Origin: Bacteroidota bacterium
Lineage (GTDB): Bacteria; Bacteroidota; Bacteroidia; B-17B0; Aurantibacillaceae
Assembly: GCA_020403265.1 (NCBI GenBank)
Contig: JADBXZ010000091.1
Span: 9,189 to 73,188 of the forward strand
DNA: 64,000 nt
Direction of reading: 5' to 3'
Made by a program: the position numbers and the translations under genes
Notes under the pieces: generated by a model
What the model was told of the DNA's origin: nothing
Database searches by the model: none
What the model saw: the letters and a program-made list of their open reading frames with translations, nothing else
Shown here: one piece after another, positions 1 to 4,148 of the stretch
Layout: each line of letters starts with the position of its first letter
How positions within the stretch are numbered: the first letter of the stretch is position 1

Positions 1-2649
1 AACGGGGTTATCAGCGGAAGTTCAGGTTTACAATTTTCTGCTGGTCAATCCGGAGGTATTGGTACAATACTTTTAAATTCGCCAAACACATATGCAGGTA
101 ATACTATTTTCAACACTGGTAATGCCGGTTTAGTTTCTTTAGGCGTAAACAATGGTTTACCGGTAAATACAAATTTAACTATGGCATTTTCTTCAAGTAA
201 TGGAGGAATATTTAACTTAAACGGTTTTAATCAAATTATAGGTAATTTGGCAAATGGTATAGGTGGAGGTTCAATAACTAATAATAGCTCAACATCAAAC
301 AGTACCTTATCCATTACACAAACTACAATAGGTTCTTTTAATAGACCCATTACAGATGGCAGTGGAGGAATGAAACTGGGTATAATCAAAAATGGCTCCA
401 GTTTATTAACACTGAATGGTACAGGTTATACTTTTTCTGGCGGAATGTATCTTAACGCTGGCGAATTAAGATTTAATCCAAGTTCAAGTCCAGTTGCTTT
501 AGGGTCTTGTCCAATGGTTTTAAATGGCGGTGTTCTTGGCACATCTGGCATTACAGCTAGTTCGGTACTTAATTTTTCAACTTTAGATGTAGAAGGCACA
601 ACAACCATTAGTTTAGCGGCTTCGGCGCACACATTAAATTTTGCAAATAGCAATGGTGTTGCATGGACTAGCGGTACTGGTCAATTAGACATAATTGGTT
701 GGACAGGTACTTATACCACCATGCCTGGTTCAAGCGGTACCAATGGTAAAATTTTTGTTGGCAGCAGTGCCAGTGCTTTAACTGCTGCGCAACTTTCAAA
801 AATTCGTTTTTTTGACGGTGTAGATTATTACCGTGCTACCCTACTTAGCACAGGTGAATTGGTGCCAAATGGCAAGTTAACCAAGCTTTCAACAGCTTTT
901 TGTGCCTACACATCAACTAGCACTTCAGAGTTTATTTGGGCAGATAGTTTGGGTACACCAAGTACACAAAGTAATTGGCGTTATTTGTTTAAGTTGGTAA
1001 ATGGTGCCAGCACTTTTACTTGGCAAACTAACAACGAATGGCCAATTATGCAGTTTTATAATTTTCCCGGCTTAAGCATTAACACAACTTATACTGCTTC
1101 GGTTGCCTGGAGTGACGATAATGGTTCAACATTTAGCGCTTATGGCCCAACCTGTGCTATCAGCAGCCCTGTTAGTGGTACTACTAATATTTCTTCAGCC
1201 ACGTGTGGTTCTACTTTAACCAGTTTTAGTTCACCTATTTTTGCTGATGGCAACGGAGCCAGTCAGTATGAATTTCAATTAGTAAATAGTGCTTTGAGTT
1301 ACACACAAACCAAAGTAAACACTTCGCCTAATTGTAACTTAAGTATGTTTACCGGCATTACAAACAGCGCTACGTATAATATTAATGTGCGGGCATTTGT
1401 AATGGGTGTTTGGAGTCCTTACGGCCCAACCTGTACCATTACTGCACCAAATAGTGCAACTACTCAGTTATCGCCCGGTTCATGCGGATCTAGCCCTTCA
1501 AGTTTAACAAGTGGTATTTTTGCAAATTCGGTTACAGGAGCCAGTCAATACGAGTATCAGTTAACAAATAGTAGCTTAAGCTACACATCAAGCATTGTGC
1601 GTACTGCGCCAAACTTTAATTTATCTATGTTTAGTGGATTACAAAATAGCACAACTTATTCAGCACAGGTTAGGGTAAATATTGGCGGCAGTTGGGGCAG
1701 TTATGGAGCGGTTTGTACTTTAACAACACCGGCTATTCCAACCACTTCACTTTCTTCCGGTAGTTGTGGTTCTAGTCCTGCTACTTTTATAACAGGTATT
1801 TTTGCCAATGCTGTTACCGGTGCAACGCAATATGAGTATCGATTAATTAATAGTTCATTAAGTTACACGTCTAGTATTACAAGAGGTGGCAGTAACTTTA
1901 ACTTATCAATGTTTACAGGTTTACAAAATAGCACAACTTATACATCAGATGTAAGGGTTTTTGTTGGAGGAAGCTGGGGTAATTATGGTGCTGTGTGTAC
2001 GCTTACAACGCCCGGTATTCCCACAACATCATTATCAGCCGGCTCGTGTAATTCATTTCCAACATCCTATTATACCAGTGGTTTGTTTGTAAATCAGGTA
2101 CCAGGGGCTACACAGTATGAGTACACGTTATATAACACAGCTAATTCTTATACTTCAGTTATAACAAGAACGGCTTCTAATTTTAATTTAGGGATGTTTA
2201 GCCCATTACCAGCAGTATCAACAACGTATTCGGTTATTGTAAGAGTAAATCAGGGAACCGGATTTGGAACATACGGTGCGCTTTGTACGGTAACATCGCC
2301 TGGCACACAAGCAAAATTAGGAGGAGCTAATGAGGTTGAGTTTGCAGAAAACGCAAATGATCAATCCACTTTAAAAGTAGTTGGCGAATTAAACAATACG
2401 TTTATTGAAGCCTTAGTATTTCCTAACCCGGTAAAGGAGAGTTTCCAAATTGTACTAACTAATTATCAGGTAAATGAACCAATTACCATAAATGTGTTTG
2501 ATGCAATGGGTAGATTGATTGAGCGCAAAACAGATACTGCAGAATCGATTGGCGTTATGCACTTAGGAACAGAATATGCAAAAGGAATTTATAATGTTGT
2601 AATAGTGCAAGGTAATTCTGTAAAGAACATTAAAGTGGTGAAGGAATAA
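1..2649 (+). CDS. T9SS-exported surface protein (5'-partial): autotransporter-type beta-helix repeats, ~5 Cys-containing FN3-like repeats, type A CTD
   Basis: Frame 1 is open from base 1 (NGVISGSSG...NSPNTYAGNT...), so the listed Met at 181 is internal. Repeats start TT at 1180, 1459, 1741 and 2023. The C-terminus FPNPVKE...GIYNVVIVQG...KVVKE is a typical T9SS type A signal. Confidence 0.85.
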   Translation, partial: NGVISGSSGLQFSAGQSGGIGTILLNSPNTYAGNTIFNTGNAGLVSLGVNNGLPVNTNLTMAFSSSNGGIFNLNGFNQIIGNLANGIGGGSITNNSSTSNSTLSITQTTIGSFNRPITDGSGGMKLGIIKNGSSLLTLNGTGYTFSGGMYLNAGELRFNPSSSPVALGSCPMVLNGGVLGTSGITASSVLNFSTLDVEGTTTISLAASAHTLNFANSNGVAWTSGTGQLDIIGWTGTYTTMPGSSGTNGKIFVGSSASALTAAQLSKIRFFDGVDYYRATLLSTGELVPNGKLTKLSTAFCAYTSTSTSEFIWADSLGTPSTQSNWRYLFKLVNGASTFTWQTNNEWPIMQFYNFPGLSINTTYTASVAWSDDNGSTFSAYGPTCAISSPVSGTTNISSATCGSTLTSFSSPIFADGNGASQYEFQLVNSALSYTQTKVNTSPNCNLSMFTGITNSATYNINVRAFVMGVWSPYGPTCTITAPNSATTQLSPGSCGSSPSSLTSGIFANSVTGASQYEYQLTNSSLSYTSSIVRTAPNFNLSMFSGLQNSTTYSAQVRVNIGGSWGSYGAVCTLTTPAIPTTSLSSGSCGSSPATFITGIFANAVTGATQYEYRLINSSLSYTSSITRGGSNFNLSMFTGLQNSTTYTSDVRVFVGGSWGNYGAVCTLTTPGIPTTSLSAGSCNSFPTSYYTSGLFVNQVPGATQYEYTLYNTANSYTSVITRTASNFNLGMFSPLPAVSTTYSVIVRVNQGTGFGTYGALCTVTSPGTQAKLGGANEVEFAENANDQSTLKVVGELNNTFIEALVFPNPVKESFQIVLTNYQVNEPITINVFDAMGRLIERKTDTAESIGVMHLGTEYAKGIYNVVIVQGNSVKNIKVVKE

Positions 2650-2670
2650 TTTGCTAAATGTTTAGAAATA

Positions 2671-2703
2671 AAAAAGCCTGAAACGGAATGTTTCAGGCTT
2701 TTT
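2671..2703. terminator. Bidirectional intrinsic terminator
   Basis: AAAAAGCCTGAAAC-ggaat-GTTTCAGGCTTTTT perfect stem with A/T tails, between convergent genes. Confidence 0.85.
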
Positions 2704-2708
2704 TGTTT

Positions 2709-2805
2709 GTGGTTCTCGACTTCGCTCGAACTGACGTGGTTCTCGACTTCGCTCGAACTGACGTGGTTCTCGACTTCGCTCGAACTGACATGCGCTTGAA
2801 CGGAC
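2709..2805. repeat. Left REP-like tandem array: 3 x 27-nt GTGGTTCTCGACTTCGCTCGAACTGAC plus degenerate 16-nt ATGCGCTTGAACGGAC
   Basis: Identical units at 2709-2735, 2736-2762 and 2763-2789; degenerate unit at 2790-2805. Confidence 0.95.
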
Positions 2806-2814
2806 AATGTTTTT

Positions 2815-2837
2815 GTCACGTTGAGCGGAGTCGAAAC
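2815..2837. repeat. Inverted copy of the REP-like unit (GTCACGTTGAGCGGAGTCGAAAC)
   Basis: Reverse complement GTTTCGACTCCGCTCAACGTGAC resembles TTCTCGACTTCGCTCGAACTGAC and could pair with the third array unit. Confidence 0.75.
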
Positions 2838-2867
2838 GTAGACAAAAACAAAACCATGTCTAAGTTA

Positions 2868-3200
2868 TTATTCATTAACTGCTTTGTAATTTTTATGTGA
2901 GGTTTCATTTTTGCATTCTGCTTCTTTTTTGATTTTTTGCCAATCACTTTTAATTAGAGCCTCTTTTTTTGCTTGACTCCATTTTTTGATTTTCTTTTCC
3001 CATTCAATAGCTAAATTGAAATCTGTAAACTGTTCACTGTATTTCATTTCGACAGGGACTCTGCTATACGTATATGCATTTTTATTGGTTCCTTTATTGT
3101 GCTGCAATAAGCGCCTTTCCGGGTTGTTCGTAATACCTGTATAATAGGTTCCGTCTGCACATTTTAAAATGTAAACGTAAAGGTATTTAACGGGTTTCAT
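2868..3200 (-). CDS. GIY-YIG nuclease family protein (YhbQ/UPF0213-like), 110 aa
   Basis: YVYILKCADGTYYTGITNNPERRLLQH and AIEWEKKIKKWSQAKKEALI motifs. The likely start is ATG at 3200 (MKPVKY); the longer ORF-track start merely translates the upstream repeats. Confidence 0.9.
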   Translation of the reverse strand: MKPVKYLYVYILKCADGTYYTGITNNPERRLLQHNKGTNKNAYTYSRVPVEMKYSEQFTDFNLAIEWEKKIKKWSQAKKEALIKSDWQKIKKEAECKNETSHKNYKAVNE

Positions 3201-3220
3201 ATAGATAGATAAAGGTAAGG

Positions 3221-3348
3221 TTTTTTGTTTGTGGTTCTCGGTTTCGCTTGGATAGAAACAGTTCTCGACTACGCTCGAACTGACATGCGCTCGAACTGAC
3301 ATGCGCTCGAACTGACATGCGCTCGAACTGACAAACGTTCGAACGGAC
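3221..3348. repeat. Right REP-like tandem array: degenerate 27-mer, one 24-nt unit, 3 x 16-nt ATGCGCTCGAACTGAC, degenerate AAACGTTCGAACGGAC
   Basis: 3261-3284 GTTCTCGACTACGCTCGAACTGAC; 3285-3300, 3301-3316 and 3317-3332 identical; 3333-3348 degenerate. 3221-3240 is identical to 2699-2718. Confidence 0.95.
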
Positions 3349-3368
3349 AGAGTTGATCAAAAGGAAAA

Positions 3369-4148
3369 TTAGCTTTTTACTATTAACCGTTTAATGATGT
3401 TTTTGGCGTTTTGTAAAACAAGTTCTTTTAACCATTCAATTGGATGATTAGTCCAGCGTTGTGGGTGAAAGGTAAACATCACTTGCGGAGGGAAATTGTG
3501 ATGTTTAAGATCAGAAATGATTTGAGAGGTGCTATGATAACTTCGGTTGAGGAAGTCAGGATTGTTAATAGTATTGGCGTTCATGGCTTTATCGCGAACG
3601 CTTACTTTGTGTCCGTCCCAGCGACGGCCGGTGTCGGTTAAGTAAAAAACGGAATTAAAGTCTAAATCGAAATAAGGTTCTGCTAAAATTCCTAAGTCGT
3701 TATACTTGTATTTTTTCCAAATATCACGGTTGTCAAATTTACTCATGGGGCTACCATGCATACAAATGGTTTTAACAGTCACGTATTTTCTGAAATTTTC
3801 GAGATGAAATTTAAACTCGTTGTAAGCCTTTTCAACATTGCCTTTTGAAGTGTCCATGGTTTCGTAATGGTAACCAATTTCGTGCCCCATAGTTTGCATT
3901 TCTTTCATTAAATTTGCGTCAAAGCTTTGCGGGATGGTTCGGAAGTAATAGGTGCCTTTTATGCCCAATTCGTTTTGTATTTTAGCAAATGCATAAGAGT
4001 TTTGTTTTTTTGCATCCACGTCGTGGCGGAGGATAATGCATTTATTTTTTGGCGCTTTTACAAATTCAGCATAGGTTTGAAATTCGTAACCTTCCTTGAG
4101 GAGTGCTTTTAATAAATACTCATAGGATGTTATTGTAAAATCTTTCAT
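3369..4148 (-). CDS. Polysaccharide deacetylase-like protein
   Basis: ILRHDVD, HEIGYHYE and CMHGSP motifs of NodB/CE4-like proteins; terminal gene of the glycan locus. Confidence 0.75.
   Translation of the reverse strand: MKDFTITSYEYLLKALLKEGYEFQTYAEFVKAPKNKCIILRHDVDAKKQNSYAFAKIQNELGIKGTYYFRTIPQSFDANLMKEMQTMGHEIGYHYETMDTSKGNVEKAYNEFKFHLENFRKYVTVKTICMHGSPMSKFDNRDIWKKYKYNDLGILAEPYFDLDFNSVFYLTDTGRRWDGHKVSVRDKAMNANTINNPDFLNRSYHSTSQIISDLKHHNFPPQVMFTFHPQRWTNHPIEWLKELVLQNAKNIIKRLIVKS

Follow-up and report, generated by a model that had tools for sequence, protein, structure and literature searches.

A small GIY-YIG nuclease gene enclosed by GTCA-tagged hairpin repeats in a Bacteroidota genome: a probable sister-lineage counterpart of the Ssn nuclease-hairpin pairs

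The Ssn nucleases are the closest described counterpart of the locus treated here. In the work of Chenal et al. 2025 (Nat Commun 16:2388, PMC11893778), SsnA, a 94-aa GIY-YIG protein of Neisseria meningitidis, was found to bind its repeat, NTS (CGTCATTCCCGCGMAVGCGGGAATCYRG), solely on single-stranded DNA (ssDNA) and to cleave upstream of it, cutting being abolished by each of the substitutions Y6A, Y17A, and E64A; RNA was not bound. Four purified cd10448 Ssn proteins, from three Neisseria species and Wolbachia pipientis, cut ssDNA and not double-stranded DNA, upstream of oriented hairpins that start with CGTCA and by which the genes of these proteins are flanked; 71% of Ssn homolog genes lie near such motifs and 42% have them on both sides, and the NTS-ssnA-NTS layout was likened to insertion sequences (IS) and to the pairing of repetitive extragenic palindromes (REPs) with RAYT transposases (PMC11893778). 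A separate class of REPs, tagged CGTC and found in Bacteroidetes among others, was stated to "apparently lack a dedicated transposase" by Di Nocera et al. 2013 (BMC Genomics 14:522, PMC3733652), whose paper makes no mention of GIY-YIG. The present analysis concerns a cassette of comparable make-up, a 110-aa GIY-YIG nuclease gene enclosed by arrays of short tagged hairpins, in a 64,000-nt stretch of contig JADBXZ010000091.1 (positions 9,189 to 73,188 of assembly GCA_020403265.1) from a member of the Aurantibacillaceae (Bacteroidota); this whole stretch is referred to below as the window, and the genome from which it comes as G000.

The initial annotation of the window proposed that the small nuclease is the cognate enzyme that nicks and spreads the repeats, in a REPtron-like system with a different nuclease fold. 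Its central concept is already in print, because Chenal et al. reported nuclease-hairpin pairing for the Ssn family, including the analogy with IS and REP-RAYT (PMC11893778); what stands of it is that nuclease and repeat form a specific and recurrent pair. Its statement that a transposase is lacking for the CGTC-tagged REPs agrees with what was known in 2013 (PMC3733652). We consider it probable, at roughly 60%, that the locus represents the Bacteroidota version of such a system, in which an Ssn-like nuclease of a sister lineage and its hairpins form a resident pair. The units around the gene would then be ssDNA recognition sites of the encoded nuclease, which, by analogy with SsnA, would bind the folded unit on one strand alone and cut near its tag, the C-terminal tail of the protein (ECKNETSHKNY) probably reading the loop. 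The gene would be surrounded by its own sites, arranged as [GTCA-hairpin]-gene-[hairpin-TGAC]; the arrays may have been enlarged by local tandem duplication of either whole units (27 nt) or 5' half-units (16 nt), and the cassette would at present be a seldom-moving element rather than an active transposon. The pairing is counted as Ssn-type because the catalytic residues are kept, the tag occupies the same position as in NTS, and the units flank the gene.

The hairpin family and its association with the gene

The units on either side of the gene are hairpins, a feature that the initial annotation did not list. Each comprises a T-GTCA tag and a covarying stem of 4 bp that closes a loop of 12 nt, invariant in sequence (GAGCGNAGTCGA); the 27-nt unit of the window, when read on the coding strand, is GTCA GTTC GAGCGAAGTCGA GAAC CAC, that is, tag, arm, 12-nt loop, arm, and linker. 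A set of 438 distinct units was collected with the 12-mer as the sole anchor, tag and stem being left free, and 83% of these have GTCA at a distance of exactly 4 nt upstream of it. At each of the four stem positions a base pair is present in 87-93% of the 438 units, against 39-72% expected from column composition, and the tag positions pair at no more than the expected rate. In a subset of 70 units thinned by hand, the covariation score is 0.717, as opposed to 0.236 for shuffled sets, 0/500 of which attain it, and to no more than 0.147 for slid controls, with up to six pair types per stem position. The base that precedes GTC is T in 321/438 units (73%) and C in 41/438 (9%), the GTC core itself being present in approximately 90%; the unit start proposed in the initial annotation, (C/T)GTCAG, thus holds mostly as TGTCA, and a CGTC start applies to just 9%. 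Since the hairpins are weak while loop, tag, and stem pairing are conserved, the combination of a sequence-specific loop and tag with a paired stem of free sequence is the signature of a protein recognition site, and not of a stable structural hairpin. A search of Rfam matched no family to the units, yielding sub-threshold hits alone, all of them on the terminator hairpin next to the cassette.

The family is present well beyond the locus, as became clear from the genome-wide count for which the initial annotation had called. Searched exactly, the elements of the cassette are nearly private to it: the 20-nt direct repeat TTTTTTGTTTGTGGTTCTCG occurs only twice in the 4.25-Mb draft genome, both times at the locus and even with two mismatches allowed, and the core 13-mer CGCTCGAACTGAC, whose three left and four right copies are as originally counted, has 7 of its 8 exact genome copies there. 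A refutation of the repeat family on the basis of this exact-motif census was considered and rejected: the 22-mer of the initial annotation and the 27-nt unit are nearly private, but the relaxed family pattern GTCANNNNGAGCGNAGTCGA has 61 copies in the genome. The same pattern is found in 34 of 61 related genomes, and its reversed control has no copy in any of the genomes scanned. Units are strongly biased toward extragenic positions, 15 of the 61 lying inside open reading frames (ORFs) of at least 120 aa as compared to an ORF coverage of 85% (p=2e-26). In being short, extragenic, palindromic, and multi-copy (61), the family resembles REP-like repeats in general; with the CGTC-tagged REPs it has in common the short tagged palindromic form and the occurrence in Bacteroidetes (PMC3733652), from which it differs in the base before GTC.

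The association between gene and repeat was followed across species-representative genomes, among which Flavobacterium, Algoriphagus, Draconibacterium, Pedobacter, Dyadobacter, Chitinophagaceae, and others contribute at least 578 loci that encode relatives; the 80 best loci were examined for units. Units lie within 350 nt of the gene at 69/80 loci and on both sides at 48/80; flanking repeats are thus a general property of the homologs. Unit density is 5.0 per kb within 350 nt of the gene, 0.27 per kb at 350-1500 nt, and approximately 0.014 per kb genome-wide in G000. In orientation, the nearest upstream unit agrees with the gene at 65/78 loci (p=2e-9), at a median of 37 nt from the start codon, and a reverse unit frequently follows the stop codon, at a median distance of 13.5 nt; the commonest layout is the one with outward tags, [GTCA-hairpin]-gene-[hairpin-TGAC] (37/96 loci). 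Among 30 loci from related genomes, those of the closest homologs bear units whose stems vary from locus to locus, always in a compensating manner, and the second paralog of the window's own genome (C78:88499-88795, 50% identity) is itself embedded in arrays of the family, with stems CCCT and GGCT. Among 61 genomes, the number of units tracks the presence of a close homolog (Fisher odds ratio 8.3, p=5e-4; Spearman rho 0.54, p=6e-6).

The association is also specific. Three genomes hold 33-89 units and lack a close homolog, and not one of nine small GIY-YIG genes of other types in them has a unit within 1.5 kb; these other types were therefore rejected as partners of the GTCA units (0/9 loci with a unit nearby). 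A RAYT was likewise rejected as the mobiliser of the units, because the genome's Y1-family gene has a separate and different REP: this RAYT-like Y1_Tnp gene (C111:2324-2878; PF01797, E=4e-7) has its own repeat, GCACGAATCCTTTCGTG, on both sides, with 7-10 copies in the genome of which 4-5 adjoin the gene. It is a separate REPtron-like pair within the same genome. Among the loci L263-L278, in three related genomes, the small GIY-YIG genes of UPF0213 type and of Ssn type have no unit nearby.

Partial units form a further recurrent element of the arrays. Stacks of them are found in the window (3285-3348), at loci L003, L006, L178, and L183, and at C78:88000-89150 of G000; the stacked copies comprise tag, 5' arm, and the start of the loop, with periods of 15-27 nt, and a complete unit with an identical arm follows immediately on their 3' side, 43/53 stacked partial units having the arm of the next unit. 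Such stacks could have arisen by slippage at the hairpin, or through cycles of cutting followed by repair.

The protein and its relation to Ssn, UPF0213, and REPtrons

As the initial annotation had read it, the gene encodes a GIY-YIG protein; the match to PF01541 (65.3 bits against a cut-off of 22.6) covers a single domain, and no NCBIfam model matches the protein. An AlphaFold model, with a pLDDT of 88.5 overall and of 94-97 in the core, predicts a beta-beta-alpha-beta-alpha core fold (strands 7-13 and 19-24, helix 27-36, strand 51-58, helix 61-72), for which Foldseek returns the UPF0213 structures 1ZG2 and 1YWL first, followed by Slx1, GIY-YIG domains of UvrC being matched as well. Residues Y10, Y20, and E68 align with the catalytic Y6, Y17, and E64 of Neisseria SsnA, and among 18 members of the clade Y10, Y20, H34, and E68 are invariant and R30 is kept in at least 90%, the GIY-YIG active site being intact. 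The gene is under purifying selection (dN/dS 0.10 versus the closest homolog). A homing endonuclease of the I-TevI type was ruled out, there being no second domain and the gene being chromosomal and intergenic.

In many respects the window lineage, here termed type-c, resembles Ssn. Both have a single GIY-YIG domain of approximately 100 aa (less than 150 aa; 110 in the present case) with catalytic Tyr, Tyr, and Glu; in both, the gene is flanked on both sides by oriented hairpins with a single-stranded GTCA tag directly 5' of the stem; and in both the repeats are dispersed, extragenic, and clustered, with a patchy distribution that includes some genomes with repeats and no gene. The logic of the hairpin is reversed, however: NTS has a conserved stem of 7-8 bp and a small loop that tolerates change, whereas in the window units the stem is short and free in sequence, and the 12-nt loop that it closes is invariant. 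The window lineage also differs from Ssn in having an additional C-terminal tail that co-varies with the type of loop. Furthermore, at the Neisseria ssnA loci L171-L173 and L176 the nearest NTS tags face the gene, whereas type-c tags mostly face away from it and other NTS-type loci are mixed; the notion of a fixed cassette polarity in common with Neisseria was rejected on account of these opposite and mixed directions.

Comparisons of sequence place the window protein outside Ssn. The SsnA used for comparison was a 94-aa, NTS-flanked ortholog from another Neisseria genome, with Y6, Y17, and E64 as in the published protein (PMC11893778), which stands in for that of N. meningitidis. With 31% identity and E=9e-9, a single pairwise value that would be weaker against a proteome, the window protein falls short of the blastp threshold used for Ssn (E <1e-10 over at least 75% of the query). 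The published SRM pattern, HGTCWYN(0-2)YYVSBRHN(0-5)WNVSBRGN(0-2)RNCYNB, has 3 matches genome-wide versus 1-2 expected, none of them near either type-c gene of the genome. A UPF0213-type protein of Neisseria matches the window protein with E=2e-13, and the UPF0213 structures 1YWL and 1ZG2 with approximately 1e-12. In a maximum-likelihood tree of 58 proteins, a branch of length 0.94 with support of 100/98 parts the NTS-flanked proteins from the UPF0213 clade (99/90) and the window clade (94/70), the latter being sister to UPF0213 and not nested within it; the deep forks of this tree are soft, since the alignment is short (107 columns). The window protein is thus best regarded as a sister-lineage relative of the Ssn kind and not as a member of it, with a strong functional resemblance: it is placed outside because it departs from Ssn in BLAST score, SRM, and clade, and yet it shares the catalytic residues, the tag position, and the embedding among repeats. 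Because it is nearer to UPF0213 and lies outside Ssn by BLAST and SRM, carrying the Ssn mechanism over to it is an analogy.

UPF0213/YhbQ, a Slx1-related family represented by 1ZG2 (BH0048) and 1YWL (EF2693), provides the best matches of both sequence and fold, and shares with the window protein the 10-residue gap between the two Tyr and a central G..(A)YT..RRP segment. The C-terminal helix KKWSRKKKEALI..W..L of the window protein is, in contrast, a feature in common with Ssn and not with UPF0213, and the UPF0213-type genes L152 and L155 (Neisseria) and L263 are without flanking units. With REPtrons the likeness is one of arrangement: a small nuclease gene is bracketed by inverted extragenic hairpin repeats with a conserved tetranucleotide tag, gene-less doublets are dispersed, and the arrangement is long-lived and mostly vertically inherited. 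REPtrons differ in the fold and chemistry of the nuclease, which employs an HUH/Tyr covalent intermediate, as opposed to the hydrolysis to be expected here from the GIY-YIG family, and in the tag, which is GTAG for RAYT and GTCA for the window units.

The co-variation between repeat and protein for which the initial annotation had asked is found at the C-terminal tail. Proteins with the tail (S/A)EC(K/R/Q)NE(T/S).H.KNY have the short 12-nt loop at 63/70 loci and the long loop at none, and those with the tail L(S/A)KKKF have a split loop at 8 loci and the short loop at none (p=8e-9); this split, or long, loop consists of GAGT(A), an inner hairpin of 20-30 nt, and (T)ATCGA.

Weighing the explanations of the cassette

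The reading put forward in the initial annotation, that of an active mobile element of the REPtron or IS type whose GIY-YIG enzyme serves as the transposase of both the cassette and the gene-less doublets, appears unlikely; the evidence on mobility is mixed. On the question of whether the gene is syntenic and vertically inherited, the findings point in both directions: it is patchy among 37 congeneric genomes, with 0-5 copies per genome, as befits a mobile element, but closely related species of Flavobacterium, Tamlana, and Algoriphagus carry the cassette at syntenic positions. Two pairs of loci in unrelated contexts display identity limited to the cassette (96% over 432 bp for L185 and L186; 85% over 458 bp for L183 and L184), to which must be opposed the identical protein in the same context in all of the 24 metagenome contigs that were read and the two paralogs of the window's own genome, which at just 50% identity are old. 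In one metagenome contig that was compared with positions 2550-3450 of the window (L262, from JGI metagenome 3300044647), the sequence is identical base for base except for the 27-nt array, with two copies instead of three. Mobility would also be favoured by at least nine near-identical, dispersed REPIN/MITE-like doublets of approximately 125 bp (MITE, miniature inverted-repeat transposable element) in G000, which have unrelated flanks and contain two convergent GTCA units each, 9 nt apart and with stems GACT and CCCT; these doublets, however, bear their own outer 13-nt terminal inverted repeats (ATACCATTTATAA), because of which an ordinary transposase might move them. The extragenic position of the units and the predominance of outward tags agree with a mobile element as well. 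The same could be said of the four relatives, out of 40, that have a homolog of the neighbouring deacetylase gene (51-64% identity) without the cassette; since these homologs adjoin other genes, they do not provide a clean pre-insertion allele, and the search for an empty site suggested in the initial annotation came out negative: neither a target-site duplication nor an empty site was found for the cassette at the locus or in these four relatives. We know of no strand-transfer chemistry for the hydrolytic nucleases of the GIY-YIG kind, which also argues against a transposase.

We regard as quite unlikely a second possibility, in which the hairpins would be REP-like elements of an ordinary structural or regulatory kind (stabilisers of mRNA 3' ends or terminators, for example), spread by slippage or by another enzyme, and the GIY-YIG gene a selfish passenger, landing in or by them or having its expression controlled by them, without propagating them. 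In its favour, the units are extragenic, often at the ends of genes or beside terminators, and the distance from the forward unit to the start codon downstream of it varies rather little, which would fit a regulatory site; the two genomes with tens of units and no small GIY-YIG gene, described below, would also be accounted for. A mere RNA or DNA hairpin, however, would not need a 12-nt loop and a GTCA tag conserved as sequence and with fixed polarity; the tail co-varies with the loop, the units match no Rfam family, and RNA was left unbound by SsnA in the published case (PMC11893778). That the flanking arrays are a chance local tandem duplication unlinked to the gene is suggested by the privacy of the exact 27-nt unit and of the 20-nt lead-in to the locus, but is so improbable as to be negligible, being refuted by the presence of the same family at 69/80 homologous loci in many genera and around the second paralog.

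The resident pair of a sister lineage, which we prefer, has its own difficulties. The window protein departs from Ssn by BLAST, SRM, and clade, and its scores against UPF0213 (47-51 bits) exceed those against SsnA (28-35 bits), in addition to which it reads SRVP where its relatives read RRP. As free DNA, the units fold with -1.5 to -7 kcal/mol, most of them no better than shuffled sequences. The tail, which would read the loop, is the part of the AlphaFold model with the lowest confidence (pLDDT 50-73), and its correlation with the loop is phylogenetically non-independent; as this correlation rests on few subclades, it is suggestive, and does not amount to a count of independent events. Lastly, a small GIY-YIG gene is absent from two genomes that hold units, G047 (100% complete) with 22 and G017 with 33, which indicates that units outlive the gene. 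All of these observations weigh against the preferred reading.

A considerably bolder version can be formulated, which as a whole we regard as doubtful. According to it, this lineage would be a large one (at least 578 loci), with UPF0213/YhbQ as its sister group and no dependence on the Ssn clade as published, and would supply the enzyme that the GTC-tagged, REP-like hairpins of Bacteroidota have so far lacked; recognition would follow a second logic, in which a conserved 12-nt loop on a free stem is read by a swappable tail, so that tail-loop pairs would represent orthogonal ssDNA specificities; and the half-unit stacks would be footprints of repeated cutting and repair at a fixed point of the unit, the enzyme driving both the growth of the arrays and the spread of the repeats.

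To our knowledge, the Ssn nucleases are the first enzymes found to cut solely ssDNA at specific sites, and are in demand as tools. If the sister lineage does work like Ssn, it would represent a very large uncatalogued reservoir of specificities, invisible to the published search pattern; the fact that the C-terminal tail tracks the type of loop would indicate a simple specificity module, and a candidate partner enzyme would be at hand for the long-orphaned GTC-tagged, REP-like repeats of Bacteroidota. The recognition architecture, the co-variation of tail and loop, and the half-unit stacks are not covered by the published description of Ssn. For annotation, the arrays explain many contig breaks, spurious small ORFs, and GIY-YIG gene calls that are over-extended at the N-terminus.

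Features of the locus and further observations

Features of the cassette, its immediate surroundings, and the related doublets (positions are those of the window unless a contig of G000 is named)
Feature	Position	Strand	Remarks
Terminator-like hairpin, bidirectional	2666..2708		inverted repeat I1; 19-nt arms, 95% complementary
20-nt direct repeat, copy 1, TTTTTTGTTTGTGGTTCTCG	2699..2718		exact-match census of the genome
Three identical complete hairpin units of 27 nt, GTCAGTTCGAGCGAAGTCGAGAACCAC	2709..2789	-	Tandem Repeats Finder (TRF): 3.0 copies, 100% matches, score 162
Degenerate 16-nt 5' half-unit, GTCCGTTCAAGCG + CAT	2790..2805	-	sequence reading
Extended stem TGTTTTTGTC/GACAAAAACA enclosing the inverted unit	2808..2850	+	inverted repeat I8
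Inverted complete unit GTCACGTTGAGCGGAGTCGAAACG, stem CGTT/AACG	2815..2838	+	starts 29 nt past the GIY-YIG stop codon; tag points away from the gene
GIY-YIG nuclease gene, 110 aa, single domain	2868..3200	-	PF01541, E=6e-18
20-nt direct repeat, copy 2	3221..3240		runs on into the unit relic
Relic of the 3' part of a unit, GCGAAACCGAGAACCAC	3231..3247	-	continuous with direct repeat copy 2 (feature span 3221..3247)
Complete forward unit GTCAGTTCGAGCGTAGTCGAGAAC	3261..3284	-	ends 60 nt upstream of the start codon; tag away from the gene
Three 16-nt 5' half-units, GTCAGTTCGAGCG + CAT	3285..3332	-	TRF period 16
Degenerate half-unit	3333..3348	-	outermost of the stack 3285..3348
Deacetylase-like gene	3369..4148		last gene of the glycan locus
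Doublets of approximately 125 bp in G000	C42:251, C45:117326, C68:38445, C77:50231, C86:119142, C89:167584, C111:197, C116:23, C130:930

The anatomy given in the initial annotation holds in its details: the cassette lies between the terminator and the end of the glycan locus, the two 20-nt lead-ins are identical, and the terminal units are degenerate, ending at 2805 and 3348. The terminator hairpin, whose T-run overlaps the first copy of the 20-nt direct repeat, is preceded by a convergent gene (1-2649) for a surface protein with a tail for the type IX secretion system, a Por_Secre_tail domain being present in that ORF. The core of the cassette has the layout [GTCA-hairpin]-gene-[hairpin-TGAC] with additional units of the same sense outside it: the 27-nt units lie downstream of the gene and have its orientation, and the half-units, which have no 3' stem arm, are stacked 5' of the complete forward unit, in a 16-nt array to which TRF assigns 4.9 copies (3272-3349, score 128). 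To this the inverted unit has to be added, a second element beyond the list of the initial annotation, whose region (2808..2850) folds as DNA with -7.1 kcal/mol (z = -2.78). On the coding strand, the 20-nt direct repeat reads CGAGAACCAC + AAACAAAAAA, which is the 3' end of the 27-nt unit followed by a spacer; because it is thus part of a unit plus spacer, it looks like a scar of duplication or recombination rather than a target-site duplication.

The upstream array (3201-3302, minus strand) is open in frame with the GIY-YIG gene, resulting in an in-frame ORF of 144 aa with an ATG at 3302. This longer start was rejected, since both the homologs and the JGI gene call begin at 3200. Peptides derived from the arrays (VSSSEVEN, LDFARTD) also produce the spurious ORFs 2589-2819 and 2688-2900.

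Other small GIY-YIG genes of the genome, at C45:272885-273110 (-), C118:272-487 (+), and C22:3-80 (-), differ in kind from the one described above. Each is located at a tRNA gene and has a partial tRNA duplicate on its opposite side, as exemplified by the C45 gene, around which truncated and full tRNA-Ser-like copies are found. At C117:125020-125031 of the same genome, a GTCA unit lies in frame inside an ORF of 328 aa, to which it adds the peptide SSRAESRDE; the ORF was assigned to cas1 by eye only, and is adjoined by what appear to be cas2 and a Y1-like gene. Finally, at locus L023 (G033:C10:42805-46083) a GIY-YIG domain of the same broad group is in frame within a helicase/HsdR-like ORF of 907 aa, just before the DECH box, as though it had been inserted there into a restriction or helicase gene.

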